Below are positions 474-45,161 of a stretch of DNA of 64,000 bases, in pieces; within the stretch, counting starts at the first letter, position 1; each line of letters begins with the position of its first letter. This stretch comes from a virus: IMG/VR virus record IMGVR_UViG_3300028287_000410, positions 43,763 to 107,762 of that record; one strand, given 5' to 3'. The translations under genes were made by a program, and so were the position numbers. Below the pieces are notes generated by a model. That model searched no databases. It was given only the letters and a program-made list of their open reading frames with translations, and was not told where the DNA came from.

Positions 474-1529
474 TTATTCTACTAAGTTTAGACCGTCTAT
501 AACATCCCCATCAATGACCATATCAACCGGATGTTTTTCACCATAGAATTCATTCTGTTCCCAGCACTGGTCTTCTTCATTCCAATCAAACCAAGGGCTA
601 ACTGCTAATACGTAGTTAGTCCTTTTGTACCCTGGCATTGGCTTTGCTACATATGGGCGATGTGTCACATATGTATCCCAAACATACCAATTTCCGGGAG
701 TAAATGACTTTGTTCCATAATCTTCAATTTCAATACCATATGCATTCTCTGGATTATCAAGTGCTAAGTTTATACGAAGTTCGTAAAACCAGCTTTCATC
801 TCTGTGCCATAGGAATTTGTTTGCAGTCTCTTGTGTTGCTTTATCATCGATGCCTTTAATCTGAGCAATGCGACTACGCACAGGCGAAGACTTAATTCTA
901 TCCCTTAGTGTGCCTAAATATTCATGTCCAGAACATTCACTCCAATTTCTAAATCCCCATGTGTCTGGGTACGTATCTTTGTTGATACGTTCACCTACGT
1001 CTTTTCTATCTTCGTATGTATCTAAAAGTTCATTTAGTACAGTATCGTCAATTATACCATGTTGATGTAAATATCTAAACCCATGATGCATCCCAAACTC
1101 CTGGGTCTCACTCCACAAGTCTTTATCTAGACGTTTTTCCATAATCTTTTCAAATAATGAAAAGTTCTTCATAAACAGTTCATCTGGAATGTTATTTCTA
1201 GGATACCCTAATGTCTGTGCATTCTTTGGAATATTGTCATATCTATATGTAGGATTAGTCACCAAACTCAATCCACCATAGTTAGAACTTCTAGCAAATT
1301 TACCTTGATATATGTTTAGAAACCCATACCAACCATACTTTACGAATGCGTCTTCGATACTGTCTCTTAGTGTGTCCACATCTAATTTCGTATCTTCAAA
1401 TTCGAACAATACACCTTCTTTGCTTGGTTTCATTGTTTTAGCATATTTGTCAGTATCCAGAGTTTCTGCAATCCAGGCATGGACTGCTTTTCTATCTGGG
1501 CAATCTTTTATGTAAAATCTTTTCTTCAT
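474..1529 (-). CDS. Putative 2OG-Fe(II) oxygenase (Asp/Asn beta-hydroxylase-like cupin) with N-terminal extension
   Basis: C-terminal RSRIA...WHRDE (HxD)...RINLAL...WYVWDTYVTHRP (distal His)...RTNYVL fits a double-stranded beta-helix facial triad. Confidence 0.6.
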   Translation of the reverse strand: MKKRFYIKDCPDRKAVHAWIAETLDTDKYAKTMKPSKEGVLFEFEDTKLDVDTLRDSIEDAFVKYGWYGFLNIYQGKFARSSNYGGLSLVTNPTYRYDNIPKNAQTLGYPRNNIPDELFMKNFSLFEKIMEKRLDKDLWSETQEFGMHHGFRYLHQHGIIDDTVLNELLDTYEDRKDVGERINKDTYPDTWGFRNWSECSGHEYLGTLRDRIKSSPVRSRIAQIKGIDDKATQETANKFLWHRDESWFYELRINLALDNPENAYGIEIEDYGTKSFTPGNWYVWDTYVTHRPYVAKPMPGYKRTNYVLAVSPWFDWNEEDQCWEQNEFYGEKHPVDMVIDGDVIDGLNLVE

Positions 1530-2701
1530 TTTTTATAACTCACATCTCCGGGATAGATAGGAACCATTGCGCCGGGCGCACGTTTTGGAATTTTACTGTC
1601 AGCACTAGATACACAACTATCTGAAATACACACCTTAGGCGCATCGAATAGTTTAAACCCACTCTCAATATACCCTAAGGGCTCGTCAGAACAACTGTAA
1701 GAGCGTTTAATAGACCCATCAGGCTCACGTATAATAATACCCTTAAACCCGCTTGTACAATCCCAACCTTTAAACTTGTTAAAGTTAAACGCATTAAAGC
1801 GTTCTGCTTGGTCCATGTAGTACTTGTCACCTTTACTATCTTCGAACTCTACTTGCATGATAGGTGGGACATTCTTATCATCGCCATTAATCATATCCAT
1901 CTTCCACATGCTTCCTGTGCGTGGCTTTGGACGCATTGCTTTAATAGTATTCGCTTTTTCAATAGTATCAGTGTACGCACGTTGTGGCATACCATTCTGC
2001 ATCATCTTTAGTTGTTCGTCTGTGTATCCGTCTACAACACGTGATGCAGTAGGATCTGACTGTGGTTTTAGAGTAACATTGATTCCACGCTCATGAAAGT
2101 ACATTGCGTTATTCCAATCTCTATCAAACCAGTCTGGTACAAGTACCATATTGATTGTTACTTGCACATCATGTTCCATACAGAATAGAAGTTTGTCAGC
2201 AAATTCATCCATCTTTGCATATTCACTGTGATAAGATGCAGTAATACTTGCACGATGAAACTTTGCAACAATGTCACAATATTTCTGAAACCAATCCATC
2301 TTACGTGCCATATTTGTTGTCATATGAACAGAGGTATAATTAGTGTTATCGACATCATCAGCCAAATGCTGCAAAATATCCAAGTATCCTGGATGAAAAG
2401 TAGGCTCACCGCCAGACAAAGAAAAATGGAAACTATTAAAACTGTTATCACGTGCTTGCCTCTTAATTTCATCTATGGTCGCTAGACACAACTCTGTTGG
2501 TCTATGATCTTTTCTATCACTTCTGGCATAAGGCCAGCAGTACGAACACTTGTAGTTACAGAAACGTCCTAATAACCAAGACACTGAAAACAAATCCCTG
2601 TATAAAAGTGTTCGTTGACCTACCTTAACGATATCATCATACGGCGTTGCTGTAAAGTCGTATTGTGACCAGTAGTCTGCATCTTTTTCAATCTTATCCA
2701 T
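1526..2701 (-). CDS. Radical SAM protein with C-terminal Cys-rich (twitch/SPASM-like) domain
   Basis: CNYKCSYC and SGGEPT motifs; C-terminal GWDC..G...SYSC...C..SC. Paralog of 9967..10983. Confidence 0.92.
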   Translation of the reverse strand: MDKIEKDADYWSQYDFTATPYDDIVKVGQRTLLYRDLFSVSWLLGRFCNYKCSYCWPYARSDRKDHRPTELCLATIDEIKRQARDNSFNSFHFSLSGGEPTFHPGYLDILQHLADDVDNTNYTSVHMTTNMARKMDWFQKYCDIVAKFHRASITASYHSEYAKMDEFADKLLFCMEHDVQVTINMVLVPDWFDRDWNNAMYFHERGINVTLKPQSDPTASRVVDGYTDEQLKMMQNGMPQRAYTDTIEKANTIKAMRPKPRTGSMWKMDMINGDDKNVPPIMQVEFEDSKGDKYYMDQAERFNAFNFNKFKGWDCTSGFKGIIIREPDGSIKRSYSCSDEPLGYIESGFKLFDAPKVCISDSCVSSADSKIPKRAPGAMVPIYPGDVSYKK

Positions 2702-2703
2702 TA

Positions 2704-4131
2704 TTATACCTTGTATTTTTTCATCGCGTTATATAGTTCTGGCAACTGACGTTCCATATCTTCGTCGCGGATGTCATCTAACTTGCTGTTATATTCCCAA
2801 AACTTTTTATTGTTTTCTTCTGTGAACCAATCTTCTCCGTACATGAAATTAATATTCGTGTCTAACAGATTATCCATTTTCTTGATAGCCCACTCTGCAT
2901 TTGCAGGTTTTATCATTCCTATTACGTTTGGATTTTTCTTAACTAGACTATGAAAATCAATAGTGTGTACTATTTCTTCTTTAAATTCAGTCCTAAATGC
3001 TTCCCAACTATCACGTACTTCATCCTTTACATCTTTCGGTAGGAAACGAGTACTTAATTCATGTGGTTTGTGAATAGGGTGTACATTTGCAAAAGGTTTT
3101 AAGTTATTCTTCAGTATAGGAGAGATAACTGCAAAATCTTGTTCAATCTTCCATTTTAAAAACTCTGGCAAATGAAATGCATTTAGGGAACCGATAGTAA
3201 ATGCAATCCAGGCTCTAAAATTCATAGTCTGTGTGCCTACTTCATCTAGTTTCTTTAGATTTTTTTCTATTAGTTTTGACTTCAATGGGTTGCGTACATA
3301 TTCTAGTGTGTCTCCGATACCGTCCATAGAGATACCAAACTGTACTTGCTTAAAGTTAGTCCATAAGTCTAACGCACGTGGTTGGATATTTGTTAGGTTA
3401 GTATTATACTCAAGTGTCATTTCTTTTGCTTTACCTTGCTCTACACAATACTTTAAGAAATCATAATGTCTTTCAATAATAAGTGGTTCGCCGCCTACTA
3501 GATATACGTGTTGCATACCAGCTACGTTCTCTTCTAAGTTCTCCCAGAAGTGATCTTTGTGTACCCAATCGTAATCATCAGCGACATACTTTCCCTTCTT
3601 ATTCTTATACATTTCAACGACACCATGTGTGTCTTTGAATTTACTTGATCCCCACATTTTAACATAGTCATCATACCAAGCACTAGAATCCATCGGTGAA
3701 CACATACGACATTTTAAGTTACAAAAGTTACCTAATCGAATATCGTAATACGTTTGCTTAATATGCTCTAAGTCTATTGTACCATCTTCTTCTGTATGAG
3801 CTACCGCCTGATCCCAAGTAATGTGTTGTGCAAAACGTTCACCATCATTGATACGTCGAGATTTCATACCTGCTTTTTCTTCACGTACACAACGAATACA
3901 TTCCTTATGCCACTTACCTTCAAGCATAGTAGAACGAATTTCTTTTGCTAATGGAGAGTTAATCGCATCAGTGATTTGGTCATGATGCAAATTATAGTTT
4001 GTTCCGTCTTCTTTCTTGTAAATACCACGTGTCGGTCCTTGATTAGCATGACAACACACACGCAAATCTCCATTTGCACGTGTCGAAATGTTTATCCATG
4101 GTAGAATACAGAATGTATCACTCTTTTGCAT
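2704..4131 (-). CDS. Radical SAM protein with N-terminal twitch-like domain
   Basis: N-terminal FCILPW...RVCC...CIRC, then CNLKCRMC, GGEP, YNTN and SMDG. Confidence 0.93.
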   Translation of the reverse strand: MQKSDTFCILPWINISTRANGDLRVCCHANQGPTRGIYKKEDGTNYNLHHDQITDAINSPLAKEIRSTMLEGKWHKECIRCVREEKAGMKSRRINDGERFAQHITWDQAVAHTEEDGTIDLEHIKQTYYDIRLGNFCNLKCRMCSPMDSSAWYDDYVKMWGSSKFKDTHGVVEMYKNKKGKYVADDYDWVHKDHFWENLEENVAGMQHVYLVGGEPLIIERHYDFLKYCVEQGKAKEMTLEYNTNLTNIQPRALDLWTNFKQVQFGISMDGIGDTLEYVRNPLKSKLIEKNLKKLDEVGTQTMNFRAWIAFTIGSLNAFHLPEFLKWKIEQDFAVISPILKNNLKPFANVHPIHKPHELSTRFLPKDVKDEVRDSWEAFRTEFKEEIVHTIDFHSLVKKNPNVIGMIKPANAEWAIKKMDNLLDTNINFMYGEDWFTEENNKKFWEYNSKLDDIRDEDMERQLPELYNAMKKYKV

Positions 4132-5353
4132 ATTCGTTCATCTCCGTATCTTCAAAGTTCTCTTCGCCGTTGCCTCTGAAGTCTAATTCTTTACCACAAG
4201 TCTTACCGCAAATCCAAAGACGTTCATCTGAATTTGTTTCCCAGCTTGCTACTAAGTCATTTGCAAAATATGGGGTTTTGAGTATATCAAATAATGAATG
4301 TTTTGATAAATCATTGAAATCTTTGCCATATCGTTTCCACATATTCTTATTGTCTTCGATACGTCTTGGCGTTGCCATATCGTGTCCTATTTTACTATAG
4401 TAATGTCCCTGCCAACAGCAAGGCCATACTTTACCCTGATAATCGATAAAAATACTCTTATCTCTTTTAGTTTGACATGCTATTTCTGTAACCTTTACAT
4501 AATTATCAAACCCTTTGTGCTTTTTAATTACATCATCTACTTTATTAGTAGTATTAGATTTTGTTTTTGTAGGTTCTGCTAAAATAGTTGCAAGTGCTTT
4601 CTCTTTTTGTTCTGTTGTCTTACTTTCAATTTTCTTTTTGTTTTTTGCTACATGTTGTTTAGCAACAAATGTTAATTCTTTTTTAGTTTCAATAGCTTCG
4701 ACTTCTTCTCCCTCGTAATGTGTAGGGATAACATATCTATTTGATTTCTTATATCTAAACTTGACAAAGCCCATGTCTTCTGCTAGTTGTCTCGCTTCAT
4801 CTATCTGATGCTCATTGTGTGCAAAGCCTATGAAGTCCCAACGTGCAATGCCACCATTAGCAATGAATGCTTTTGCATTACGCATAATAATATTCCACTT
4901 AGAATTCACACGATACAAATGATTAGTGTCTTCTAGTCCATCGATAGCAAAGATAACCTTGTCTGGCTTTCGCATAATAGATGCAAGTTCAATCCACCAC
5001 GCTTCCGTCTGTGCAGAACCGTTTGTACTCAACGTAACTTGTGCTACTCCCATATCTTTGCACATCTTTACCACTTCTAGTAAATATGGATACATGATAG
5101 GATCACCGTAGTTCCCATTAATGAATACGTGATTAGGAAGAAACGGTTTCATGTCTTCCAATGCTTGTTGTATTACTCTAGGATCAGTATCAGTTAAGTC
5201 TAAATCATCACGCTTCTTTAGCTTTATGTTATCTCCATCCATGCCAGTTGTTCTTCCGCACATCGGGCACAGTAAGTTGCACCTAGAAGTAAGTTCTAAA
5301 TGCATCACACCTACATCAAATTTGATGTACTCTAAGTTCTCTGATTTCGCCAT
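4118..5353 (-). CDS. Radical SAM/SPASM-like protein
   Basis: HLELTSRCNLLCPMC, GNYGDP and STNG motifs; C-terminal C...GKVWPCCW...CGKTCG. Paralog of 10983..12071. Confidence 0.92.
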   Translation of the reverse strand: MAKSENLEYIKFDVGVMHLELTSRCNLLCPMCGRTTGMDGDNIKLKKRDDLDLTDTDPRVIQQALEDMKPFLPNHVFINGNYGDPIMYPYLLEVVKMCKDMGVAQVTLSTNGSAQTEAWWIELASIMRKPDKVIFAIDGLEDTNHLYRVNSKWNIIMRNAKAFIANGGIARWDFIGFAHNEHQIDEARQLAEDMGFVKFRYKKSNRYVIPTHYEGEEVEAIETKKELTFVAKQHVAKNKKKIESKTTEQKEKALATILAEPTKTKSNTTNKVDDVIKKHKGFDNYVKVTEIACQTKRDKSIFIDYQGKVWPCCWQGHYYSKIGHDMATPRRIEDNKNMWKRYGKDFNDLSKHSLFDILKTPYFANDLVASWETNSDERLWICGKTCGKELDFRGNGEENFEDTEMNEYAKE

Positions 5354-7724: not shown

Positions 7725-8380
7725 TATACCAATCTCCCGAATGCCCATTTACGTTCTTCGCACCACCAACATTTACCACAATGTCCAGTGACTGGGTCTT
7801 CTATGTTTTCAAAATAATTACTAGTAGGATCATATTCACAACTTCTAGTAATCGGATAAAGTTCTTCAAGTAAATTTGCTTCTTTATACATTTCTGCAAT
7901 TTTTAGTTTATCGGAATTAAACCATGGCGTGTAAAATGTATTATTATGATGCATATATGGATTGTTGCCTGGTGTTCTGTTTGTTTCTGTAACTGGCAAT
8001 CCAAATGTATCTGTGACTTCTTTTGGAGGGTTTGATGTTATACCAGTATATATAATTCCTGTTGTGTTACTATCTAAGTATACCTGCAATTTAGGAAATA
8101 ATTCTTCACGTGTTTGTATTTCACAGTAACTAATATGATGTTCAATATTACTATTACTAGTTAACTGAATAATTTTCTCTACTACATTTACTGCCGCTTG
8201 AACATTATATCTTGATCTCTGATTATTACCAGTAGTAAAGATATGTATTGTATCTTCTTTTTCTCGCATTAAATGATAAAGCAAAATAGAACTATCTGCT
8301 CCGCCGCTACAACTCACTCCGATCGGACCAGAGTGAATATCTAAGTTTACACCAGCTGGAGAAATAGAGTAATTAATCAT
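7724..8380 (-). CDS. QueC-like PP-loop ATPase (7-cyano-7-deazaguanine synthase family-like)
   Basis: SCSGGADSS PP-loop; C-terminal TRSC...HCGKCWWCEERKWAF Zn-binding motif typical of QueC. Confidence 0.75.
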   Translation of the reverse strand: MINYSISPAGVNLDIHSGPIGVSCSGGADSSILLYHLMREKEDTIHIFTTGNNQRSRYNVQAAVNVVEKIIQLTSNSNIEHHISYCEIQTREELFPKLQVYLDSNTTGIIYTGITSNPPKEVTDTFGLPVTETNRTPGNNPYMHHNNTFYTPWFNSDKLKIAEMYKEANLLEELYPITRSCEYDPTSNYFENIEDPVTGHCGKCWWCEERKWAFGRLV

Positions 8381-9935
8381 CAGTATCCAACTCCTGCTGA
8401 TTAACGTGAAATCCGTTATCTTCTAGTTCTTTTAATAGTCTGTCATCAAACTCACCATCCCAGTCATCGCCTGCTTCTGGAGTCCAATCTAGTAATGGTG
8501 CCATCTCAGGGAATACATCTCTGAAGTTTGTATCTCTGATAGCATCCATCTTTTCAATATATTCGATAAATTCTGGCATACGTTCACGTGACCAGTCGCC
8601 GCTTGTCATAAATGATATCATACCGCGTAGACGCTTCACACCATAAGCAGCATGTAACCACTCATCTTTTCTTACTTGTGATTCAGTTACACCATCGCAT
8701 TTTTCCCAGTTCTCTTCTAACCATTCGATAAATGTATCGAACTTAGCCGCACACATTTGCTTGAACCAGTTAGGAAGAACTTTGACGTTTAGATGTGGTG
8801 GGTGATAAACAAAGTGATAGTTAATCATGCCTGCGCCCAAAGGCCATAAGTTAATTTTCTTAAAGTTTTGTTCAATTTTCCACTTGACAAAATCAGGAAG
8901 ATAGTATATGTTTAGTGCTTGTACAGCACAGGCTACTGTAACTTCTACGTTAGGACCTGTATTGTCTAGCACATGAAACATATCTACAGTATGTTGCCAA
9001 GTTGATGGGAAACGAATGTAATCATTCATCTCGCCGATTGAATCAACTGAATAATGAAAACGTACACGCTTGAATAGTTTCCATAAGTCGAACAAACGCT
9101 GTGGCATCTCTAAGCCATTGGAGTTATAGCGTAGTTCGATCTGTGGAGCGTATCCTCTACGAACAACTTCTTCAAGTAGAGTGTAATGCTCTTCAATAAT
9201 TGTTGCTTCACCACCAGCAAAGTATAGTTGCTTCATGTGTGGGATTTGCTCATACAATTGTTCCCAGAATGCTTCATTCTTTTTATGCCAGTTGTAACTC
9301 GCGCCATCAATCTGACCTTTGTTGCCCCACTGCATTGTTTCTTTCAGTGATTCGTTTTCAATAGTTGGATGTAATTTAAGCCAATCTTTAACCCACATTG
9401 AACTATCGTGCGGTGAACACATAATACATTTCAAGTTACATTTTGAACCAAGACGTAAATCTAAGTATCTGATCTTCGGAGGGATTTCACCTTCGTCAGA
9501 TGTCTCATCGATGATTTGTTCCATATCTACTCGGCGTGACCAGTACTCAGTTTCCCAAAAACGCTTAGACATATGACCAGCATCTTCTTCGTTGTAGCAT
9601 TTAATACACGACGGCGGTTTTTTATTATTAAGCATCTGCTTTCGAACATTTTTCATGTAATCATTATTCCATGATGACATTAAATCTGTATGGTTCAAGT
9701 TTGCAGGTTTACCATCTGCATTCTTTAGAACTCCTACTTCACCGCCATGTTCTTTATCATTCGTTGGTCCAACAGAACTCGCATTCGCTGTACAACAAAC
9801 TCGCATATGCCCATTTGGACGAGTAGACAAGTGTACCCATGGTAGTAAACAAAATGTATCGCTAGGTGCGTATGGCACTCGCTTACGAAACTCTGCTAAA
9901 TTCTTATTAAGTTCTTCTGATTTGTTGTCGGACAT
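8373..9935 (-). CDS. Radical SAM protein with N-terminal twitch-like domain
   Basis: FCLLPW...RVCC...CIKC, then CNLKCIMC and AGGEA. Likely start is the ATG at 9935 (MSDNK), with a GGAG RBS at 9941-9944. Confidence 0.93.
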   Translation of the reverse strand: MSDNKSEELNKNLAEFRKRVPYAPSDTFCLLPWVHLSTRPNGHMRVCCTANASSVGPTNDKEHGGEVGVLKNADGKPANLNHTDLMSSWNNDYMKNVRKQMLNNKKPPSCIKCYNEEDAGHMSKRFWETEYWSRRVDMEQIIDETSDEGEIPPKIRYLDLRLGSKCNLKCIMCSPHDSSMWVKDWLKLHPTIENESLKETMQWGNKGQIDGASYNWHKKNEAFWEQLYEQIPHMKQLYFAGGEATIIEEHYTLLEEVVRRGYAPQIELRYNSNGLEMPQRLFDLWKLFKRVRFHYSVDSIGEMNDYIRFPSTWQHTVDMFHVLDNTGPNVEVTVACAVQALNIYYLPDFVKWKIEQNFKKINLWPLGAGMINYHFVYHPPHLNVKVLPNWFKQMCAAKFDTFIEWLEENWEKCDGVTESQVRKDEWLHAAYGVKRLRGMISFMTSGDWSRERMPEFIEYIEKMDAIRDTNFRDVFPEMAPLLDWTPEAGDDWDGEFDDRLLKELEDNGFHVNQQELDTDD

Positions 9936-9966: not shown

Positions 9967-10983
9967 TTATCTTTTAGTTTTAGCTGTCTCAATGTCAGCA
10001 ATACAACTGCACCAATCCCATTTACAGACTGTAGGTTCCACTGGGAATAGTATATCATGTGGGAAATCAATATGACCGTGACTACATTCATGATTACAAC
10101 TGCTTCCAGATGTTACATTTCCGTCCATTGTAATCACAATCGTTTCAAGTCCGATATTACATTTCCAACCCTTCCAAGTATTTTTACCTGTGCGCATTAG
10201 TTCGTTTGGTGTTACTTCTACGGTCTCTTTATTATTCTTAAATTTTAACCTTTTAGCAAACATGTTTTTTTGTTCATCGTCTGATAAATTGTTGATTGTC
10301 CAAACAGGTATATCATCAAATTTAAGTATATCGTCTAGATATTCGTTGTCGTATTTGAATGTCTCATGTGAACCTAAAGTCTTGCGTAAAGTTTTAATTA
10401 TCACACTATTGCATTTAGAATTGTTATAAAAATATTCTGCGGCTTCTCTACATTTATCAAGATGTAATGGATAGAGACATACTTGTATCGTATGAAATAC
10501 TCCGTGTTCTCTAAGAATACTTGACACATCACAAATATGATTTATGTCTGCACTTTCTGGGTGATAACTTATAACAATATCATCTAAGAACGGTGACGCT
10601 TTTGCCCACCAATTTAAAGTTCTTGACCCATTAGTTAATACACGAATTCTGTTATCAGGATCATATTCTTTGAGTCTTGAAATGAAAGGTATAAAATCTT
10701 TCCATACAGTTGGCTCACCGCCTAGCAAGTTCCATAACAATTGCTTGCCTAAACTTTTATAATGTATAGTTGCAACTCTGCAAAACTCTAATGCAGTATC
10801 TATGGACTTCCATTGCACACTACCATCATTAGCATAATCGTCACAATATGTACAGCTATAGTTACATACATTTCCCATATTCCAATCAATCGTAACAAAA
10901 TCAACATCGGACGAACTCACTAGTTCGTCATACTGATTAAGTAGACTGGTATCTGGTTCTGTAATAAACTTTATTTCTTGCAT
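9967..10983 (-). CDS. Radical SAM protein with C-terminal Cys-rich domain
   Basis: CNYSCTYC, LGGEPT and LTNG motifs; C-terminal GWKCNIG...SC...CKWDWCSC. Confidence 0.92.
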   Translation of the reverse strand: MQEIKFITEPDTSLLNQYDELVSSSDVDFVTIDWNMGNVCNYSCTYCDDYANDGSVQWKSIDTALEFCRVATIHYKSLGKQLLWNLLGGEPTVWKDFIPFISRLKEYDPDNRIRVLTNGSRTLNWWAKASPFLDDIVISYHPESADINHICDVSSILREHGVFHTIQVCLYPLHLDKCREAAEYFYNNSKCNSVIIKTLRKTLGSHETFKYDNEYLDDILKFDDIPVWTINNLSDDEQKNMFAKRLKFKNNKETVEVTPNELMRTGKNTWKGWKCNIGLETIVITMDGNVTSGSSCNHECSHGHIDFPHDILFPVEPTVCKWDWCSCIADIETAKTKR

Positions 10984-23396: not shown

Positions 23397-23398
23397 AA

Positions 23399-33321: not shown

Positions 33322-34186
33322 TAGAAAGCTCCAACATTGTTGGAATTATTTCTTTATTAATACAGTGAACATGATACGCATTATTAATATCAAAAACGGT
33401 ATCTGTAACTAATTGATTCCACGACGGCTTTAGCTCTGCTACAAAGTCACCATTTGATTTTATTCGCATTTGCAACCATTGAAAAAACACTTCATCTGAT
33501 GGATGAAATAAAAGGTGTTCTTGGTCGCTACTACTAACCTCTTTATAAGGCAATGTCATCGCATGAGTGTTTTGCGGTTCTGTTATGAAGTACTGCTGTT
33601 TGTGCTTATGAATTTCTATACAAAAATTTACGTAATCATTTACCATAGTTTCAGTTATTGTTTTTTTATTTAATATTAATAGTCCAGAATTATAACGATA
33701 TCGCAGTGTTTTGATATCTTCGAATGTCATCCCAGTGTACATGCAATAGTAGTACAAGAATGATGTGTCATACAAGTATGGTTTTTGTCTACAACTAACA
33801 GTGAGAACATGATTTTTATAACATTGTTGATCCAATACGCAATTATCAACATCATCTAATTTTTTGTACTCCATAAATACACTATCAAAATCTGCAAATA
33901 CGAAATATGTCATTTCAGGATAATCTTCTATTGCTGATAGTATAGTATAAAGTTTTCCTATGCCAGGGAACACTCTCATAGCATTTATCGGTATATTGTA
34001 ATCAGAGAATGTTCTACCAGTTAAATTGTATCTATATGGAACTTCGTCTCCGTAAAGTCTGTACTTCATATCATTAAATTCAGCAAAGCGTTTATGGTTT
34101 TGTATAATGTCTTGCTTATAAGGCTTTATTAAGTCATAATGTACACCTTTATATAGTGTGCTGATTAGCATAGTATCAGTCGCCAT
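33314..34186 (-). CDS. Putative glycosyltransferase (GT-A fold, nucleotide-diphospho-sugar transferase)
   Basis: K...YFVFADFDS (DxD), YNSGLLIL, SDEVFF and HVH, a layout resembling GT8/GT34. Confidence 0.7.
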   Translation of the reverse strand: MATDTMLISTLYKGVHYDLIKPYKQDIIQNHKRFAEFNDMKYRLYGDEVPYRYNLTGRTFSDYNIPINAMRVFPGIGKLYTILSAIEDYPEMTYFVFADFDSVFMEYKKLDDVDNCVLDQQCYKNHVLTVSCRQKPYLYDTSFLYYYCMYTGMTFEDIKTLRYRYNSGLLILNKKTITETMVNDYVNFCIEIHKHKQQYFITEPQNTHAMTLPYKEVSSSDQEHLLFHPSDEVFFQWLQMRIKSNGDFVAELKPSWNQLVTDTVFDINNAYHVHCINKEIIPTMLELSNV

Positions 34187-35342: not shown

Positions 35343-36532
35343 TAGAATAGTCCTTTAAATTCGTCTAGATAATCAACGATAGTATGTTCTCTGATAGTGT
35401 CTAATTCTTTTGTGTACTCTATCGCACTTTCCCATTTTGCTTTATTGTCTGGACCACCGAACATATTCTTTAGTTCGTTCATTTTCCAGTCATCAAATAT
35501 ATTTGAAAACCTGTCGTGAATAGAATCGCGCATTGCTTTTGGCAACACCGCTGGTGACAGAATGTCTGGATCATACACATAGTTATGATGTACCCAAACA
35601 CCGTGTTCTCTGTGGAAGAAGTTGAAAAAGTCTCCCAACGTGCTGTAGTTCATCCACGATACAGTCTGTGTAACGTCTAGTTCAAAGTCCTCTTCTTTAA
35701 GACGTAAGAAGTTCTTCATTACAGTATCCCATTCTGTTGGGAATCGGATGTAGTGATTTCTATCACCTAGATCATCAATAGAACACGATACTTTTACATG
35801 ATCGAACTTGCGCCATAGAGCAATGATATCTTCATTCATGTTCGTCATGTTGATGTTATACCATAGTTTGATATCTGTTTTACCCATTTCAACTAAACGC
35901 TCTAAGAACTTAAAGTGTTGTTTGATTAATGTTGGTTCCCCACCATTGATATAGAATGTCTTTACATTATCACAATGCTGTAGTAAGTCTTCCCAGAACC
36001 CCTCACGTTCAGGCCAACGAAAGCCTTCCATCGTGTTGTAGTCTGTTAACTTAAACGTTGTTGCTTTCTGTAGCTGGTCATAATCATTACGCCATTTACT
36101 ACTAGACGCCGGGTTACATGTTCTACATTTTACATTACAAACATTGCCCAACCTTAGCTCAACAAACTCTAGTTGTACGTCTTTCATGTATCCAGTGTCG
36201 TCAGTGGCGTCCCTAGCGACTCCTACAGTGTACTCAGGATAGTTCTTTATTTCTTCTATGCGTTTACTGTGCATACCTTTAGCTTCTTCGCTATAGCAAC
36301 GCAGACACGCTTGTGGTTTCTTACCATCTAATACTTGAAGTCTCGCCTTACGAAATGTTTCACTATTCATAGTATCAAACACTGTATCACGATTTAGATT
36401 GTAATATCTATTTTCGCCATCTTTAGCACTACTACGTGCTTGACGATGATCCGCAATACAACAATGCGTCACTCCGCCATGTGGATGTGTCGCTAAGTGT
36501 TGAAATAGTAATGGGCAGAATGTATCACTCAT
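35342..36532 (-). CDS. Radical SAM protein with N-terminal twitch-like domain
   Basis: FCPLLF...THCC...CLRC, then CNVKCRTC and GGEPT. Confidence 0.93.
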   Translation of the reverse strand: MSDTFCPLLFQHLATHPHGGVTHCCIADHRQARSSAKDGENRYYNLNRDTVFDTMNSETFRKARLQVLDGKKPQACLRCYSEEAKGMHSKRIEEIKNYPEYTVGVARDATDDTGYMKDVQLEFVELRLGNVCNVKCRTCNPASSSKWRNDYDQLQKATTFKLTDYNTMEGFRWPEREGFWEDLLQHCDNVKTFYINGGEPTLIKQHFKFLERLVEMGKTDIKLWYNINMTNMNEDIIALWRKFDHVKVSCSIDDLGDRNHYIRFPTEWDTVMKNFLRLKEEDFELDVTQTVSWMNYSTLGDFFNFFHREHGVWVHHNYVYDPDILSPAVLPKAMRDSIHDRFSNIFDDWKMNELKNMFGGPDNKAKWESAIEYTKELDTIREHTIVDYLDEFKGLF

Positions 36533-37547: not shown

Positions 37548-37554
37548 GCATTAC

Positions 37555-38319
37555 TTACTTTTCTATTGTATACCTATTTATATCAAACGGGCTTCTTTTA
37601 TTTTGTCCGATGTTTATAAAATATTTCATTGCTTGTCTCGCTAACAACTTTTTATTAGTATCTGACATATGATTTAGTTTTTCAAAATATTTAAGGTTTT
37701 CCCTGCGTACTATTTGCATTAAGTTAAACTCATCGCCATCAAAAAGGTCACTAAATGAATGTAATACTAATACATCATTTTTCATAGTATTCAAATAAGT
37801 TTGTACAAGACTAAATTGATTTTTTACATCATCAGCATACATGCAGCGTGTTAAGTATGTTTGCCAAAATTCTTTATCTTTTTTAAAATATTTACATTGT
37901 TCTTTAGGAATAGAGGACAGTTCAAAATCAGGATCTATAAATTTCCACGCCGTAGAATGCCAACCTTGAGATTCATCATCTAATAAATTTGTAACACGTG
38001 AAGCATTGGTCACGCCGAATATTATAGTATCATTTTCGTCATACTCAGTTTCCATATAATGAAACAGCATTTGAACACTATAATTTAAACTAGTACCTGA
38101 GTTTGCATAATTTAAAAGACTCATATTCAAATTATCTGCTAATAAACCTGTCCAAGACAGACCTTGATTAGGTATATTATGAATCTTACCCGTGCTATGT
38201 TGAAAAAAACTATCCCCGAATACTACTAGCCGCCGGCCTTTTTTATTATTGTCAGTACGATGGATCTTGCGGTTTTCATAATTTATACTTAGTAATAAAT
38301 TTTTAAGTCTTCTAGTCAT
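37555..38319 (-). CDS. SGNH hydrolase-like protein
   Basis: VVFGDSF, NYANSGTS and terminal NHMS. Likely start 38319. Confidence 0.72.
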   Translation of the reverse strand: MTRRLKNLLLSINYENRKIHRTDNNKKGRRLVVFGDSFFQHSTGKIHNIPNQGLSWTGLLADNLNMSLLNYANSGTSLNYSVQMLFHYMETEYDENDTIIFGVTNASRVTNLLDDESQGWHSTAWKFIDPDFELSSIPKEQCKYFKKDKEFWQTYLTRCMYADDVKNQFSLVQTYLNTMKNDVLVLHSFSDLFDGDEFNLMQIVRRENLKYFEKLNHMSDTNKKLLARQAMKYFINIGQNKRSPFDINRYTIEK

Positions 38320-39703
38320 AGCGTTTCCACCAATCATATAATTCTGTATCTAGTTTGTAAATATCTTCTAATCGATACTGCTCTTGTCTAATCTTATCAA
38401 GTCTATCCTGATAGCCTTTACCATTCTTAAACTCTTGTTCGTGTGTATCTGGGAACTGTTCAGCAAACGTTGGGCGTTTCTTCATTTCGATAAGGGTATT
38501 TATTAGTGTCTCTTGCTTGTTAGTTGCAATGGGTTTCATATAATCAAGTAGCTCATCAATCTTTCTGTCCAGAATATGACGCGGCCACGCGAACGGTGAC
38601 ATAACGATGTCAGCATGGAACGCAAACATTATCTTTGTTTCCATACGTACATCTAGCTCTAATGATAAGTCAAACAAATCTTTTAGTGAGAACATGCCCG
38701 GACCAGTGATAGTCAAATCAAACAACATCCTGTGTTTACCGCCTGGTGCCGCCAGTCCTTGCTTAAAGTTGTCTAGCCACTCCTCCCATACGATACCTTT
38801 ACGAATGAACTCTACGATATCTCCTGTGCCATCAATACTCGCACACATCAACCAGTCTTTAAACTGTGGCAGATAGTCAAACAAGTTCTTGCCTTTAAAG
38901 TCTACACGTGATAGATTAGAATTATAACGCAAATGACAGTTCTTTGCAGAACCGTTGTTTACCATTTCTTCTAATGCCCACCAATGTATATCATACATAA
39001 GAGGTTCTCCGCCTACCCAATAGATTTCTTCTACTACGCCATCAGAGATAGCTTTCTTGAATTCAGGTTCAGCAACATCTTTCTGAAACTTTTGCATCTT
39101 TTGTTTAACTGTTGGTTGCATAAAAGGCTGATGTTCAATCGACCACATATCATGCTTTTTCTTTTCAGCTTCCCATGCACTTGATAATTGCTCACCGCAC
39201 ATACGACATTTAAAGTTGCATAGATTACTGTAGCGATAATCAAATGAGATTGTAGGCATAGTTGTATACCCATCATCATCTGTTTTGTCAAATGCTTCCT
39301 GAATTTTATCTTTAAACAGAACACCAGTGAACCACTTGCGATACGAACTTAGAGATAGAGTGTCATCATTACATACATCACATTGTGGGATACGTTCACC
39401 CGCCATTAGCTTCTTGCGAATGTCACGCATGTATGGGGAGTTCCAATGCTCTTCTAATGTCATCGGATTGAAATCATCAGCATCAGTTTTAGAATCAGTT
39501 ACTTTGCCATATTTTGAATCGTTTGATGCATCAATATATTGTTTCTGAAAAGAATGCTCTTCACGTGATGCACAACACATTCTACGTTCACCCTGTGGAG
39601 AGATATAAGTATGTGACCATGGTGCCATGCAGAAAGTTTTGTTTTCACTTTCTTCTGCACAACTCGCATCGTCTTTCCAGATGGGTATAATTCTTTTAGT
39701 CAT
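38312..39703 (-). CDS. Radical SAM protein with N-terminal twitch-like domain
   Basis: FCMAPW...RMCC...CDVC, then CNFKCRMC and GGEP. Confidence 0.93.
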   Translation of the reverse strand: MTKRIIPIWKDDASCAEESENKTFCMAPWSHTYISPQGERRMCCASREEHSFQKQYIDASNDSKYGKVTDSKTDADDFNPMTLEEHWNSPYMRDIRKKLMAGERIPQCDVCNDDTLSLSSYRKWFTGVLFKDKIQEAFDKTDDDGYTTMPTISFDYRYSNLCNFKCRMCGEQLSSAWEAEKKKHDMWSIEHQPFMQPTVKQKMQKFQKDVAEPEFKKAISDGVVEEIYWVGGEPLMYDIHWWALEEMVNNGSAKNCHLRYNSNLSRVDFKGKNLFDYLPQFKDWLMCASIDGTGDIVEFIRKGIVWEEWLDNFKQGLAAPGGKHRMLFDLTITGPGMFSLKDLFDLSLELDVRMETKIMFAFHADIVMSPFAWPRHILDRKIDELLDYMKPIATNKQETLINTLIEMKKRPTFAEQFPDTHEQEFKNGKGYQDRLDKIRQEQYRLEDIYKLDTELYDWWKRYD

Positions 39704-40940
39704 GTACGTAACTCGCTAACTCTGGTAAGTAATCTTCAACTCTTTGATTTCTAATGGTATCTAACTTTCTTGTAATCTTAGAATACTGTGGCCACCATTC
39801 TTCATGCATACTTGGGTTATCAAGCATTTTTCTATAACTTATAAACTGCGGTAGTGTATATGATACATCATTATTCTGAGTTTGTAAATAGTTAATATGG
39901 TCATCTAGTTTCTTTTTTGCGTTATTCATCACTTCAGGAGGAGCAATTTCTACACGATAATATTCTGGATGAAACAATGGGTTAAGTCCAAACTTGTTAA
40001 TGTCTATAAGTTCATTCTCATACAAATACTTATGCAAGTCTACGACATGGTCAATGTTCATGATACCAACAGTACAGCTATCAAATATTTCTACGTTCGG
40101 ACATTCACGTCTTATAAGACGAATGTTCTCTTCAATCTTGTCCCACGGTTGCCCTGCTCTTACGTATTCCGCACGTGGACCATATGCATCAATAGATGCC
40201 ATAATCTTAACACGTTCTAGTTTATTCCAAATATCAATTGCACTGCGTTTCTTGTATGTAAGTTGACTTAAATTTGTCTGATAAAAGATATGAGCATTAA
40301 GATTTCCCTGTGCAATTACTTCATCGATGAAAGCCCAATGCTCTGGCATAATAAGAGGTTCACCACCTGCAAAGTAAATACGTTCTAAATTTTTAATTTG
40401 TGGTCTAGTTTCATCCATCAATGAATCAAAATTACTTCTAACTTTTTTTACTTTTTGATGGTGTATCGCAAACGTATCACCTAATAGTTTAACACTATCA
40501 TCAAACCACATTGTACTAAAATCAGGACCGCAACTTCTACACTTCATATTACAATTGTTACTGAAACGAATATCCCAATATGTAATTCGTAGCTCGTTTA
40601 AAGTGCCATCCTCTGAGGTGTTTTCTACTAAATCATAATGATGACCGTTTTCTTTATTCATACTTTGTCGTAAAGATTTGAATCCATATTCTTCTTGCTC
40701 ATAGCATCGTGTACACGCTTCACTACGTTCTCCGTTAAGCATGTTCTTACGTAGTTGTTTTGCTTTATCTGTATTAAGAATATCTCCGAGTGGAGTATCA
40801 TTTAAATTACCAAATTGATGTTCTTTTCCAACATTACTTAAACAACATGGATACACTTCACCACCTGCCCAAGCATGTACATGTACCCAAGGTGCCATAC
40901 AGAATACTTTACTATCTTTTATATCATATTTGTTCATCAA
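39696..40940 (-). CDS. Radical SAM protein with N-terminal twitch-like domain
   Basis: FCMAPW...YPCC...CTRC, then CNMKCRSC and AGGEP. Confidence 0.93.
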   Translation of the reverse strand: MMNKYDIKDSKVFCMAPWVHVHAWAGGEVYPCCLSNVGKEHQFGNLNDTPLGDILNTDKAKQLRKNMLNGERSEACTRCYEQEEYGFKSLRQSMNKENGHHYDLVENTSEDGTLNELRITYWDIRFSNNCNMKCRSCGPDFSTMWFDDSVKLLGDTFAIHHQKVKKVRSNFDSLMDETRPQIKNLERIYFAGGEPLIMPEHWAFIDEVIAQGNLNAHIFYQTNLSQLTYKKRSAIDIWNKLERVKIMASIDAYGPRAEYVRAGQPWDKIEENIRLIRRECPNVEIFDSCTVGIMNIDHVVDLHKYLYENELIDINKFGLNPLFHPEYYRVEIAPPEVMNNAKKKLDDHINYLQTQNNDVSYTLPQFISYRKMLDNPSMHEEWWPQYSKITRKLDTIRNQRVEDYLPELASYVHD

Positions 40941-42063
40941 TATACTCTACTAATTCTGGGAATGCTACTTCAAATAGTCCCGGTCTTGTTCTTCTTGAAT
41001 AATCTAATTTACTACGAAGGTTAGATATATCTCCAGTGCCGTTCATTATTCTAATCAACCAATTATCATTACCAATAATTGGGTTAATCTGACAATCATC
41101 TAATTTGTGATTTTCAAATTTAAGTCTAATACGCTGTTTAAATTCTTCTGGTAAGTCAATAGAATTAAATGGGTGTGTGACAATATTATTGAATACTTTA
41201 ACATTATGTTCACTGCACCAAACATGAAAGTCCGGCAAGTCAAATATATTTAGTGCGGATACACTATGCGATATTTCTACTTGACATAAGCCTTCATCTC
41301 TAATAGAAATAAATTTCTTAAACACTTCATATGTTTCTTCCCATTTACCTGGATATCTCTGAAACTCAAACTTCTCATGTGTGTTATCTAGGCTAAGCAT
41401 AATACGAACAAGTTTAAACTCTTTAAAATATTTAACAAGTTCTTCTGGCCATATAGTACAGTTAGTAAACCATGTGATTTCGATATTCTTTGCTAAGTCA
41501 CGTTTAACAAGAAACTCAATCAGAATCTTTTGCTTCTTAATCATGAACGGTTCCCCACCTGCTAATTCAACTCTTTTCAAGTTATTAGCATGTAGATTAA
41601 GTTCTTCCCAGAATTCATCTGTGTCTTGCCATTTAGGTGCAGGCGTATACTTAATACCAAATTGTTTATCTATACTTCCCCATTTACTACTAGAATGCGA
41701 ACCACAAATTGCACATGCTAAGTTACATGTGTTCCCCATTTTTAAATCGATTGATTGTAGCATGTCTTGTTCAAAACCAAGATTATCTTTCCAAAGTTTT
41801 ATCTCTCTGGTACGTTTACTTTCACCGCCAGACTTTTCTACGTCATAGCACTGAGTACAATCTTTTTCAAAATGTGAATCGAAGTTATCAATCCATTCTT
41901 TTCTATCTGATGAATTGATAACTTCTGTAATAGTATTTGTATATGCGTTTGCTTTTTTGCCATCAATAGAAAAACGTTTTGAGCTAATACAACACGGAGT
42001 CATTTCTCCTTGTGTCGTAAGTTCAATATTGTTAGTTACTAATGGACAAAACTTCCTAGTCAT
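40924..42063 (-). CDS. Radical SAM protein with N-terminal twitch-like domain
   Basis: FCPL...TPCC...CTQC, then CNLACAIC and AGGEP. Confidence 0.93.
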   Translation of the reverse strand: MTRKFCPLVTNNIELTTQGEMTPCCISSKRFSIDGKKANAYTNTITEVINSSDRKEWIDNFDSHFEKDCTQCYDVEKSGGESKRTREIKLWKDNLGFEQDMLQSIDLKMGNTCNLACAICGSHSSSKWGSIDKQFGIKYTPAPKWQDTDEFWEELNLHANNLKRVELAGGEPFMIKKQKILIEFLVKRDLAKNIEITWFTNCTIWPEELVKYFKEFKLVRIMLSLDNTHEKFEFQRYPGKWEETYEVFKKFISIRDEGLCQVEISHSVSALNIFDLPDFHVWCSEHNVKVFNNIVTHPFNSIDLPEEFKQRIRLKFENHKLDDCQINPIIGNDNWLIRIMNGTGDISNLRSKLDYSRRTRPGLFEVAFPELVEYIDEQI

Positions 42064-43603
42064 CTACCACAACACCACCTAGTGCGTCATTCTCTGTATC
42101 CCAACCACCAACAGCTTTCTCATGTTCATCATCGCCGCCATCATACGCTTCAGTCGTTGCAGGGTCCCCGGCACGATCCGCAACACTAAGAACAAACGTT
42201 TTAGTCTTAATTTGTTCTTCTGTAGGGACTTCCGCTTCAAGTGTTTGATACCAATCTGCTATTGGACCAGGGAATGTTTCGACAAAGTTATGACCTCTAC
42301 GCACATCAAACTGTTGAAAGAATGCTTTAAAGTCATGATATAGTTTATCTTGCTCGGCTGTATTCTTATGTGGAGTCTTAACAATATCAAGATAATCAAT
42401 TAGACGTTGAATACTTGCGCGTTCGCCATCAGTCAATGCTTGTTGATTTAAAAAGAACCATGCTTCTAGTTTGTCTTTATAGAATGTTTTGATATTCACA
42501 GGAAGAATTGCCGCACTTTGAAATGATGGGAAACGTAAAATGTTTAGCGTCATTGTTGGCGCACGTTTTCCATATTCTTTACGTAGTTCAAGCATCTCAT
42601 CCATGAACTCTGTAATAGTAGTTAAGCATAATGAATTGATTGTCATCATCATATGTAACTTCTGTACATTAGATTCTTTAAGAACACGATGGATACTATT
42701 CATCCATAGATCATAATCTAGGCCGTCACGTATATACTCAGCTTGTGTTTTTGCTGCTTCCATCGATGTGTAAATTTCAAAGTTGGGAACATGCCATGAT
42801 TTCTCGATCAATTTGTCCAACACTTTGGGTGTCTGCGGAGAGAGATTACTATTGATAGCAAATCTCATGTTACGACCGCGATGTGGATTTTGTTCAAACC
42901 AATCAAACAACTTCCATGTACCAGTATGCATAATAGGCTCGCCGCCTGTAATGCGAATTTCTTCTAAGTTGTCTGCAAGATCACTTTCCCACCATTCGTG
43001 AAACGCTTTAATGAACGGGTTGTCTTCTGCTTTTCTTGCTGCAGGTTCTGCCCATGGTGCAGTGTCAACAAAGTGACCGCGACCATCAGACTGAATGTTT
43101 TGATATGCACCATAATCGTTGATGTCTTTAACCCATGCAGTTGAAAATGCTGGGTTACAATAAGTACATTTTAGATTACATGCTCTATCGAATGAGATTT
43201 CAAGTGTGCGTAGAAGCGCATTTTGATCCCATGGCATTTCCATACTTGCATCAATATCTTCATCTTTGAAGATTTCAGTTTTGAATACACGGTCAGAGAT
43301 ATGGTCTTTACCCATGTCTTCAACTTTCCAACAGTATTCACATTCTGCTGGGCGCTTACCTTCTTGCATTTGCTTACGCATAAGTTTCTTATGCTTTGTA
43401 TTGTGAATTGCAGTTGGGTTATCTTTTAATTCTTCAAGTGGAATCCAGTGCCCGGGCGGGTGGTGACAACTTGCTGTCTGTCCGTGACCTAACCAAATAG
43501 TAGCGTTATACCATTTAGCGGCACAGTAGCTTTCACTCTTGCTGTCGATCATACGCTCTTTGTATTGATGAAGGGTTTCGCCTTCCCAGTGTTTACGCCC
43601 CAT
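42056..43603 (-). CDS. Radical SAM protein with variant N-terminal Cys/His domain
   Basis: YCAAKW...SCHHP...CEYCW, then CNLKCTYC and TGGEP. Confidence 0.92.
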   Translation of the reverse strand: MGRKHWEGETLHQYKERMIDSKSESYCAAKWYNATIWLGHGQTASCHHPPGHWIPLEELKDNPTAIHNTKHKKLMRKQMQEGKRPAECEYCWKVEDMGKDHISDRVFKTEIFKDEDIDASMEMPWDQNALLRTLEISFDRACNLKCTYCNPAFSTAWVKDINDYGAYQNIQSDGRGHFVDTAPWAEPAARKAEDNPFIKAFHEWWESDLADNLEEIRITGGEPIMHTGTWKLFDWFEQNPHRGRNMRFAINSNLSPQTPKVLDKLIEKSWHVPNFEIYTSMEAAKTQAEYIRDGLDYDLWMNSIHRVLKESNVQKLHMMMTINSLCLTTITEFMDEMLELRKEYGKRAPTMTLNILRFPSFQSAAILPVNIKTFYKDKLEAWFFLNQQALTDGERASIQRLIDYLDIVKTPHKNTAEQDKLYHDFKAFFQQFDVRRGHNFVETFPGPIADWYQTLEAEVPTEEQIKTKTFVLSVADRAGDPATTEAYDGGDDEHEKAVGGWDTENDALGGVVVDD

Positions 43604-45161
43604 ATTTTACCTCGTATTCTTCTTTAGCTTCATTCCAGAAGTCTGTCATTTCAGGGAATGTTTCTAAGAAATTTAGTCCCCTACGCTTATCGTACTGTGT
43701 AAAGTATTCGTAGAAACGAATTAACTTATCACTTAATTCTGCGTCACTCATATTTAGTCCTTCTTTTGCCCAAGCTAAATCACGCTCAAGTTTTAGGACT
43801 TCATAGTTCTTAAACCCAGTGTACTTACGACCATACAAGTCGTTCTCTAATACGTTAGCTTTCATATAATCAATGTTCTGTTGAATAGTATCTAACATGA
43901 TAGGATCTGCTAACTGAATGGTCATCCAGTCTGGATAGCGTAAGTAAGGAATATCAAACCAAATACGTTGACGTTTTTTACGAACAAATTCTGGATGCTT
44001 AAATCCATTTCGGTCGGGAGGCTGAATAACTTTGTCTTCTTGTTTCTCATAGCCAAACTCTTCACGTAGTTTTAGAATCATATCTAAGAACCCACGTAAA
44101 TTCGGTATACTTAGGAGAGTAAAAGTGTTAATAAATGAAATCTCTGTACCATCTGTTTCAGATAATACTCGACGGCAATTTTCATACATTGTATCAAAAT
44201 CAAGACCATCACGCAGATATTCAGCCTGTTTCCCAACACTGTCTACACTTACATATAAACTAAAATGTTTACATGCTGGTGCAACATACCAATGATTGCC
44301 GCTATCAGGATTGAAACGTTCTGGATCTTCCCAAACACGGACTTCTTCTAATTTCTGTATTTTCGCAATGAACTTATCCATTAACGCTGGTTGAGGAGGC
44401 GCCATGTTTGACGTAATACTCAAATCTAAGAATGCGTTTGGATTTTCATTGACGTAATCTAATACTTTGAATGTATTCTTATCCATGAGAGGTTCACCAC
44501 CTGTCATACGAAATACTTTCAAGTCTTTATATGTTTCTGGAAACCACTTCCAGAATGCTTCGATATATGGATTATCTTTACGTGCAACTTCAAGTGGCAT
44601 CATGCCAGTCTTACGTAAGTAATCAATATCATTATGTCCAGTACCATTTGAGAAGCGGAAGCCACCATGCTTCTTAATATCATCTTCCCATGCTGTACTA
44701 AGATGCGGAGAACAATAAGAACACTTTAAGTTACACGCTTGATTGAAGTTTACTTCAACATATCTCGGTGTAATCTTATGATCCCATGGATTATTTACTA
44801 CTTCATCCCATGCGTCTTTAACCCACCACTCACTTGAGCGATAATGTCTGTCACTCAATCTTCCTTCTGTGGGAGCATTGGGCGCATCTTCTACATTCCA
44901 ACAGTACTGACAACCCTCAGGGCGCTTACCCTGCAACATTTGCTTACGCTCTTGCATCTTGAATGTTGTATTGTGTAATGCACCTACATCTTTTTTCAGT
45001 TCATCTAACGGAATCGCATGTGTGGGAGGATGATAACAACTATGTGTGCGACCTTGTGGTAAATGCAAACTTACTTGCAACCACTTAGCCATACACATTG
45101 AAGGTGAAAGAGAATTTAATTTTTGACGTGTTGCTTGTGCATCGTCATCGTAATTTGACAT
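43593..45161 (-). CDS. Radical SAM protein with variant N-terminal Cys/His domain
   Basis: MCMAKW...SCYHP...CQYCW, then CNLKCSYC and TGGEP. Tandem paralog of 42056..43603. Confidence 0.92.
   Translation of the reverse strand: MSNYDDDAQATRQKLNSLSPSMCMAKWLQVSLHLPQGRTHSCYHPPTHAIPLDELKKDVGALHNTTFKMQERKQMLQGKRPEGCQYCWNVEDAPNAPTEGRLSDRHYRSSEWWVKDAWDEVVNNPWDHKITPRYVEVNFNQACNLKCSYCSPHLSTAWEDDIKKHGGFRFSNGTGHNDIDYLRKTGMMPLEVARKDNPYIEAFWKWFPETYKDLKVFRMTGGEPLMDKNTFKVLDYVNENPNAFLDLSITSNMAPPQPALMDKFIAKIQKLEEVRVWEDPERFNPDSGNHWYVAPACKHFSLYVSVDSVGKQAEYLRDGLDFDTMYENCRRVLSETDGTEISFINTFTLLSIPNLRGFLDMILKLREEFGYEKQEDKVIQPPDRNGFKHPEFVRKKRQRIWFDIPYLRYPDWMTIQLADPIMLDTIQQNIDYMKANVLENDLYGRKYTGFKNYEVLKLERDLAWAKEGLNMSDAELSDKLIRFYEYFTQYDKRRGLNFLETFPEMTDFWNEAKEEYEVKYGA

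Follow-up and report, generated by a model that had tools for sequence, protein, structure and literature searches.

The DNA analysed here (the window; 64,000 nucleotides) comprises bases 43763-107762 of the 107,762-bp IMG/VR virus record IMGVR_UViG_3300028287_000410 (CheckV completeness ~30%), and encodes fifteen radical S-adenosylmethionine (SAM) enzymes (rSAMs) in company with glycosyltransferase (GT)-like proteins; genes are named below by the lower of their window coordinates, prefixed with w. The source virus is an uncultured jumbo phage, taken to be a myovirus, of which the record is a fragment: PHROGs identified w60472 as a wedge subunit of the baseplate and w51596, of 2957 aa, as a virion structural protein, and the wedge is ~31% identical to its counterparts in jumbo myoviruses of 340-440 kb (Salicola SCTP-2, Salmonella Munch and 7t3, and Serratia BF). 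Two tightly coupled, probably late operons lie on the minus strand, block 1 (19260->474) and block 2 (48873->31883), and the rSAM arrays come after the genes for tail, baseplate and giant virion proteins. Within each block the intergenic distances range from -49 to +38 nt, such that successive genes overlap or abut. No convincing membrane span was found in any protein of the locus.

An earlier note on this DNA had described fifteen rSAM paralogs that retain the SAM-cluster cysteine triad and fall into five architectures. All 15 open reading frames (ORFs) were confirmed (Table 1), each with exactly one CX3CX2C motif and a match to PF04055 (E 1e-15 to 1e-4), which in 11 cases exceeds the gathering score of 29.5 bits. 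Three of the four ORFs below that score (w8373 at 28.5 bits, w10983, w42056 and w43593) are full-length matches to the N_Twi_rSAM family (NCBIfam NF033640). The auxiliary motifs quoted in the note were likewise all present, ten of them N-terminal: FCxxPW/F...CC...CxxC occurs in eight genes (with a degenerate PW in w35342 and w40924), CxAKW...SC(H/Y)HPP...CxYCW in w42056 and w43593, PCCW...CxxxCG in w4118 and w10983, and GWxC in w1526 and w9967, while w22476 has no additional cysteine cluster beyond its core. The count of five architectures had to be reduced to four, since both N-terminal types belong to NF033640; the window thus holds families A (N-terminal twitch, n = 10), B (C-terminal twitch-like, n = 2), C (GWxC, n = 2) and D (core only, n = 1). 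Over the whole contig there are 18 rSAM genes, 13 of the N-twitch type, and the three that lie upstream of the window all carry the N-terminal cysteine domain. The longest ORF at w8373 overlaps w9967 by 125 nt; the real gene probably begins at the ATG at 9935, because a GGAG lies upstream of it, a database protein with 97% identity is 519 residues long and the homologues fit this start.

The ten family A proteins match NF033640 ('twitch domain-containing radical SAM protein') from end to end (profile positions 1-398), with scores of 237-430 bits against a curated cut-off of 170 bits, whereas the other five rSAMs match its core only, at 32-49 bits. With the three additional genes of the contig, 13 proteins lie above the cut-off, and all share with the curated family an N-terminal four-cysteine twitch followed by the CX3CX2C core. 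The N-terminal placement of the auxiliary domain, which the earlier note had set against the usual C-terminal position, is therefore not new but the very feature that defines this curated family. NF033640 is a family without a characterised member, and a literature search found nothing on N_Twi_rSAM, NF033640 or an N-terminal placement of twitch or SPASM domains. What is new beyond the curated family is the size of the array (13 genes per 108 kb), its orthologue-group structure and its fixed partnership with GT-like genes. The paralogs do not belong to characterised housekeeping families, an outcome that the note had named as a possible objection: matches to the NCBIfam equivalog models all fell far under their cut-offs, the best of these sub-threshold matches being viperin, MoaA and QueE for family C and several members of family A, and TrsS for w22476 (85 bits against a cut-off of 490).

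Several lines of evidence identify the domain ahead of the core. A Pfam SPASM match was obtained at the N-terminus (residues ~5-110) of seven of the ten family A proteins, and at the C-terminus of w4118. In an alignment of 79 diverse family A members, the SAM triad and three N-terminal cysteines (C14, C76 and C79) do not vary, a fourth (C33) is kept in at least 90%, and the GGE SAM-binding motif is conserved alongside these cysteines. Only four or five cysteines precede the core in all 13 family A proteins of the contig, and the C-terminal domain of family B has five; the seven-cysteine motif of a full SPASM domain (CX9-15GX4C...CX2CX5CX3C...C) was not found in either family. Four conserved cysteine ligands are enough for one fully ligated cluster, which identifies the domain as a twitch rather than a full SPASM domain, and by its cysteine pattern the auxiliary site would bind a [4Fe-4S] cluster. 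When the N-twitch profile was aligned with the family B C-terminal domain using hhalign, the two matched over 47 columns (probability 91%, E 1e-6). Together with the SPASM matches, this indicates that the same auxiliary module is found at either end of the rSAM core. The C-terminal domain of family C had no significant hhalign match to the twitch profiles and appears unrelated to them.

An AlphaFold 2 (AF2) model of w39696, built from the 79-sequence alignment, was of high confidence (predicted local distance difference test (pLDDT) 95.6; predicted TM-score (pTM) 0.92), and placed residues 1-106 as a beta-hairpin and helices preceding the core. In Foldseek and VIA-align comparisons the aligned region of this model extended only over residues ~117-380, where the nearest cores were in effect tied (Z of 13.6 for anSME, 13.3 for BlsE, 13.2 for SkfB, 12.3 for viperin and 12.0 for MoaA). 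No solved structure aligned with residues 1-110 in sequence order, and the arrangement is absent from the structures searched. Thus, family A shares its core fold with anSME, BtrN, SkfB, MoaA and BlsE, and its auxiliary module is homologous to theirs, but this module precedes the core instead of following it, and its 4-5 cysteines would serve one cluster, in contrast to the two held by the seven cysteines of a SPASM domain.

The paralogs of the contig are only 20-35% identical in pairwise comparisons. In a tree built from 514 near-full-length family A sequences, of which 363 were viral, 139 bacterial and 12 encoded on this contig, no two of them were sisters, each being closest to genes of other phages or of bacteria. 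Each paralog belongs to an ancient orthologue group of its own, shared with other phages or with the chromosomes of Bdellovibrionales, in agreement with the earlier claim that the copies are strongly diverged and not recent duplicates. The most widespread group in viral arrays is the w43593-type clade (67 tips, 62 loci), and the w42056-type and w38312-type clades extend over 38 and 30 loci, respectively. Bacterial sequences make up 44 of the 51 in the w8373-type clade (50 loci) and most of the w2704-type clade (17 bacterial sequences, 16 loci); homologues of w8373 at E<=1e-20 numbered 3012. Compared with a close relative (L001, 70-88% amino-acid identity), dN/dS was 0.03-0.24; synonymous sites are saturated at this distance, which makes the ratios rough, and purifying selection is nonetheless clear, so that there is no sign of the relaxed selection that the note had named as a possible objection. 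A Bdellovibrionales host, which might be read from the 57-67% identity of w8373 to its bacterial orthologues, was considered and rejected: the w8373 group is just as strongly conserved among viruses (63% identity to viral locus L041), and slow evolution accounts for such identity as well as recent transfer does.

Arrays of this kind are widespread. A one-motif scan of IMG/VR confirmed matches in at least 591 viral contigs, and in the best 80 of these loci (~21 kb each, the set to which the counts out of 80 below refer) there were 2-10 family A genes per locus. Above the NF033640 cut-off, two complete, terminally repeated phages of 337-347 kb and a relative of 92% completeness had 10-18 matches, and 14 control genomes had none. 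In a profile search, 9,420 of 1.84 billion cluster representatives (50% identity clusters) matched at E<=1e-30, and w39696 was matched in only six of 50,697 deposited phage records. Four N_Twi rSAM genes are clustered in Vibrio phage K566. Many database proteins of 790-1400 aa (P0121-P0148) consist of two or three complete N_Twi units in one chain, which suggests that neighbouring paralogs cooperate. The bacterial genomes were scanned with a two-sequence alignment (A2), and the dominance of Bdellovibrionales in that scan is accordingly skewed towards w8373- and w2704-type motifs. Two loci assigned to bacterial metagenome-assembled genomes (MAGs) may be phage contigs that were binned into them: a 5.8-kb Planctomycetota locus (L081), 84% identical to w8373, and a Bdellovibrionales MAG contig of 139,884 bp (L114), in which the run w48873-w48434-w47568-w46714-w45162 is kept in the phage order.

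The constant companions of the rSAM genes are two kinds of GT-like gene. The first encodes GT-A-like proteins, exemplified by the single-domain w45162 and the repetitive w15601, in which the C-terminal helical half is kept in the last repeat only, and whose viral relatives range from one domain to >1100 aa. Homologues of w45162 occur in 62/80 viral loci and the GT-A-like domain family in 64/80. These proteins have no Pfam match and no significant sequence match in the PDB, the A3 profile included; when the last domain of w15601 was modelled with AF2 (pLDDT 89), the top 40+ PDB matches were all GT-A transferases (probability 0.9-1.0), among them SunS, RmlT, ppGalNAc-Ts, WrtF, ArnC and PBCV-1 A64R. 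The second kind is the paralog pair w46714/w47568, homologues of which occur in 51-53/80 loci. Singly they have no Pfam match, but their family has an invariant LDxD-type Asp, the A5 profile built on them matched glycogenin-1/2 (E 5e-7 to 2e-5, positions 5-108), and an Atlas lead also points to GT8. The GT8-like and GT-A-like profiles were not linked by hhalign. The partner enzymes encoded in the window further include a cupin (Pfam) and the carbamoyltransferase, oxygenase and other proteins listed in Table 1; among these are tailoring enzymes of the sort seen in sugar pathways.

Table 1. Radical SAM genes and associated features of the window (coordinates are window positions).
Feature	Coordinates	Strand	Evidence and remarks
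N_Twi rSAM, family A, SC-HPP variant	43593..45161	-	NF033640 304 bits
N_Twi rSAM, family A, SC-HPP variant	42056..43603	-	NF033640 311 bits
N_Twi rSAM, family A	40924..42063	-	NF033640 237 bits; N-terminal SPASM match
N_Twi rSAM, family A (modelled protein)	39696..40940	-	NF033640 383 bits; likely start ATG 40937
N_Twi rSAM, family A	38312..39703	-	NF033640 328 bits
N_Twi rSAM, family A	35342..36532	-	NF033640 350 bits
N_Twi rSAM, family A	34176..35342	-	NF033640 320 bits
N_Twi rSAM, family A, TTG start	12055..13266	-	NF033640 284 bits; GGGAG upstream of TTG
N_Twi rSAM, family A	8373..9935 (longest ORF to 10091)	-	NF033640 430 bits
N_Twi rSAM, family A	2704..4131	-	NF033640 359 bits
rSAM, family B, C-terminal twitch-like PCCW...CxxxCG	10983..12071	-	PF04055 26 bits
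rSAM, family B, second copy	4118..5353	-	PF04055 and C-terminal PF13186; 32% identical to w10983
rSAM, family C, C-terminal GWxC Cys domain	9967..10983	-	PF04055 38 bits; 25% identical to w1526
rSAM, family C	1526..2701	-	PF04055 48 bits
rSAM, family D, core only	22476..23396	+	PF04055 58 bits
Seven-repeat GT-A-like protein, 1219 aa	15601..19260	-	Seven domain matches; only last repeat complete
Single-domain GT-A-like protein	45162..46139	-	157 bits to A3 profile; immediately precedes rSAM run
GT8 (glycogenin)-like paralog pair	46714-47571 and 47568-48434	-	A5 profile versus glycogenin
Possible GT34-like transferase (weak)	33314..34186	-	PF05637 E 0.003, under cut-off; no PDB match
NodU/CmcH-type carbamoyltransferase	19299..20831	-	PF16861 185 bits, PF02543 152 bits
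Asp/Asn beta-hydroxylase-like oxygenase	6924-7748	-	PF05118 63 bits
PP-loop ATPase (QueC-like)	7724-8380	-	PF06508 30 bits
Two paralogs with weak TENA/PQQC (haem-oxygenase-like) signal	13267..15623	-	PF03070 E 7e-4, under cut-off
Acyl carrier protein (ACP)-like ORF, 78 aa	23399-23635	+	ACP-type DSL motif; directly 3' of rSAM w22476

Counterparts of both blocks were found elsewhere. In the cultured Ralstonia phage RsoM2USA, ORF355-347 encode, in this order, w48873-like and w48434-like proteins, two GT8-like proteins, a w46142-like protein, a GT-A-like protein, an N_Twi rSAM of the w43593 type (RsoM2USA_349, 35% identical to its orthologue here), another GT-A-like protein and a w13267-like protein (RsoM2USA_347, a homologue of the TENA/PQQC-like paralogs of Table 1). 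The order is that of block 2, with one rSAM against seven, and all of these genes are annotated as hypothetical. As in the window, the module has virion genes for neighbours: it adjoins ORF356, 359 and 361, the products of which have been found in virions by mass spectrometry (PMC8504454). Block 1, in turn, mirrors a chromosomal cassette of Bdellovibrionales, in which a pair of GT-A-like genes, w45162-like included, stand with rSAMs of families A, B and C (identities of 57-67% for w8373, ~50% for w10983 and 56-64% for w1526). At times the cassette adds w2704, w4118 and the PP-loop gene, the last of which follows the w8373 orthologue in a Bdellovibrio MAG locus (L107) too. Bacterial neighbours were annotated through six-frame ORFs and Pfam; the cassette is flanked by housekeeping genes unrelated to it, with a GT2 gene adjoining it in one locus (L104).

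The earlier suggestion of a heavy Fe-S demand on the host fits the gene content of complete relatives. No Fe-S assembly gene lies on this contig (~30% of the genome), but related complete jumbo phages encode either IscU with an A-type carrier (G001, G003) or the carrier alone (G002, G004). A similar combination is on record for TARA_ERS488813_N000010, a T4-like marine genome of 183 kb in which Nishimura et al. 2017 (PMC5332604) counted 12 rSAM genes and which encodes Fe-S assembly proteins of its own; beyond the count, that paper gives no family, partners or function for the rSAM genes. The 10-18 N_Twi copies in the complete relatives, together with Fe-S assembly genes of their own, point to an investment that is large and conserved.

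The reading that we favour, with about even confidence, is of a soluble system for glycan building and radical tailoring, which is probably aimed at virion proteins. We infer the following enzymology. The GT-A-like and GT8-like transferases would transfer sugars to an acceptor, for which a virion protein encoded by the neighbouring structural genes is the likeliest candidate, and with these genes the module would be expressed. Each rSAM orthologue group would be dedicated to the abstraction of one particular H atom from a sugar or nucleotide-sugar, the CX3CX2C cluster cleaving SAM to give a 5'-deoxyadenosyl radical, and the twitch domain holding a second [4Fe-4S] cluster on its four Cys ligands, as an internal electron sink or relay like those of BtrN and anSME. 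Oxidation, epimerisation, deoxygenation and C-C or C-X bond formation are all possible outcomes, to which the carbamoyltransferase, the oxygenases and the PP-loop ATPase could contribute further decorations. The earlier note's proposal of a separate target position or residue for every paralog would be consistent with the orthologue-group structure.

Virus-encoded, cytoplasmic, multi-domain GT-A proteins that act on virion proteins are known from the capsid glycosylation of PBCV-1 (A064R) and from mycobacteriophage virions, and we liken the GT-A-like proteins to these. Those systems differ in having no rSAM enzymes, and a virion protein is here a putative acceptor. Some observations weigh against this reading. 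The fold matches of the GT-A-like model are modest (E from ~3e-4, TM-score 0.33-0.46), and of its DxD motif (D-A/G-D) only the second Asp is invariant, several Bdellovibrionales members having Asn in place of the first. Neither a short-chain dehydrogenase/reductase (SDR) of the epimerase/dehydratase type nor a sugar nucleotidyltransferase (NTP_transferase) is encoded on the 108-kb contig (~30% of the genome). No substrate is known for any enzyme of families A, B and C, and the tied nearest cores of the model (Z 12-13.6) comprise peptide maturases (anSME, SkfB, SuiB) as well as nucleotide and sugar enzymes (BlsE, viperin, MoaA, DesII).

The principal alternative, which we regard as unlikely, is that the rSAMs act directly on residues of virion or other proteins, through crosslinks, epimerisation or oxidation, and that the GTs serve a separate purpose. 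Most SPASM and twitch enzymes whose function is known modify peptides or proteins, anSME, SkfB, SuiB, CteB and EpeE are among the top structural neighbours of w39696, and the position of the arrays after the virion genes would suit protein targets. Against this, Pfam detected an RRE- or PqqD-like domain in none of the 15 paralogs, and, because genes overlap or touch, the blocks leave no space for precursor-peptide ORFs. The linkage to GT-like genes is also constant in phages and bacteria, and the Bdellovibrionales cassette has no structural protein next to it. That cassette could instead serve the bacterium's own envelope, and a role in remodelling the host lipopolysaccharide or capsule during infection, such that superinfection is blocked, was proposed for the GT clusters of jumbo cyanophages by Iyer et al. 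2021 (PMC7824862). We consider such a function improbable for the present locus, which has no flippase, polymerase, phosphoglycosyl transferase or multi-transmembrane protein, and whose genes lie in the late structural region rather than an early one.

We give somewhat less credence again to the synthesis of a diffusible small molecule (for example a modified nucleotide, a nucleoside or an aminoglycoside-like compound) by rSAMs resembling viperin, MoaA, BlsE or BtrN. The sub-threshold matches of family C and several family A proteins to viperin, MoaA and QueE, the presence of viperin and BlsE among the nearest cores, the occurrence of carbamoyltransferases and PP-loop enzymes in antibiotic pathways and the island of rSAM, ACP and hydrolase genes at 22476-25648 would all agree with it, but the seven GT-A repeats in one protein and the glycogenin-like GTs suggest that the acceptor is a polymer or a protein, export and resistance genes are absent from the locus, and the module is kept beside virion genes. 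Hypermodification of the phage DNA, in which bases would be glycosylated and then tailored by radical chemistry, appears very unlikely. Radical SAM enzymes do participate in some thymidine hypermodification pathways, and the window has a thymidylate-synthase-family gene ending at 472 and the QueC-like PP-loop gene; yet neither a DNA transglycosylase nor a kinase nor a DNA-binding domain was detected, the flanks of the bacterial cassette are housekeeping genes and not restriction or Dpd-type genes, and the number of paralogs is hard to square with four bases.

A broader proposal is put forward tentatively, as possible rather than probable: N_Twi arrays and the unnamed GT-A-like family may constitute a widespread, undescribed pathway of viruses and Bdellovibrionales, in which the sugars of proteins (in phages, of virion proteins) would be rewritten by dozens of radical reactions, ~20 or more orthologue groups would each represent a chemistry new to enzymes, and the N-terminal twitch would act as a permuted module for electron relay. 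Although very large, the N-twitch family has no member of known substrate, structure or reaction. Its orthologue groups and fixed GT partners turn new radical carbohydrate or protein chemistry, and the decoration of virions, into a testable question, for which RsoM2USA (one rSAM), Vibrio phage K566 (four) and the Bdellovibrionales cassette with families A, B and C offer tractable models.

Several proteins of the window were without matches. Pfam gave no family for w474, w5332, w13267, w36537, w37555, w45162, w46142, w46714, w47568, w48873 or w49878, ten orphan proteins had no NCBIfam match, PHROGs mostly gave none, and sequence searches of the PDB were not significant for w5332, w13267, w36537 and w33314. 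No tRNA was found within the window. A scan of the window for promoters and terminators returned counts at the level of chance, and its sole meaningful-looking element was a palindromic hairpin at 31772-31798 (12-bp stem, T runs on both sides), which separates two convergent genes, 30003-31748 (+) and 31883-32470 (-), and is likely a bidirectional terminator that closes block 2. The former of these genes encodes a secreted-looking protein with FG-GAP and peptidoglycan-binding regions.

At the left edge of the window, the thymidylate-synthase-family gene (PF00303, 232 bits) occupies positions 2-472 on the plus strand (contig 43347-44234). The two minus-strand blocks are separated by the plus-strand island 22476-25648, which consists of the family D rSAM, the ACP-like ORF and then a pair of 38%-identical paralogs (w23635 and w24626) with no family match. 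Three pentapeptide-repeat paralogs, 53-66% identical, are encoded on the contig, at window positions 27465-27908 (+) and contig positions 17643-19051. Two DUF6071 proteins (20952-21683 and 31883-32470, both -) are encoded one at the downstream end of each block, and in another locus (L137) a DUF6071 gene adjoins a carbamoyltransferase.

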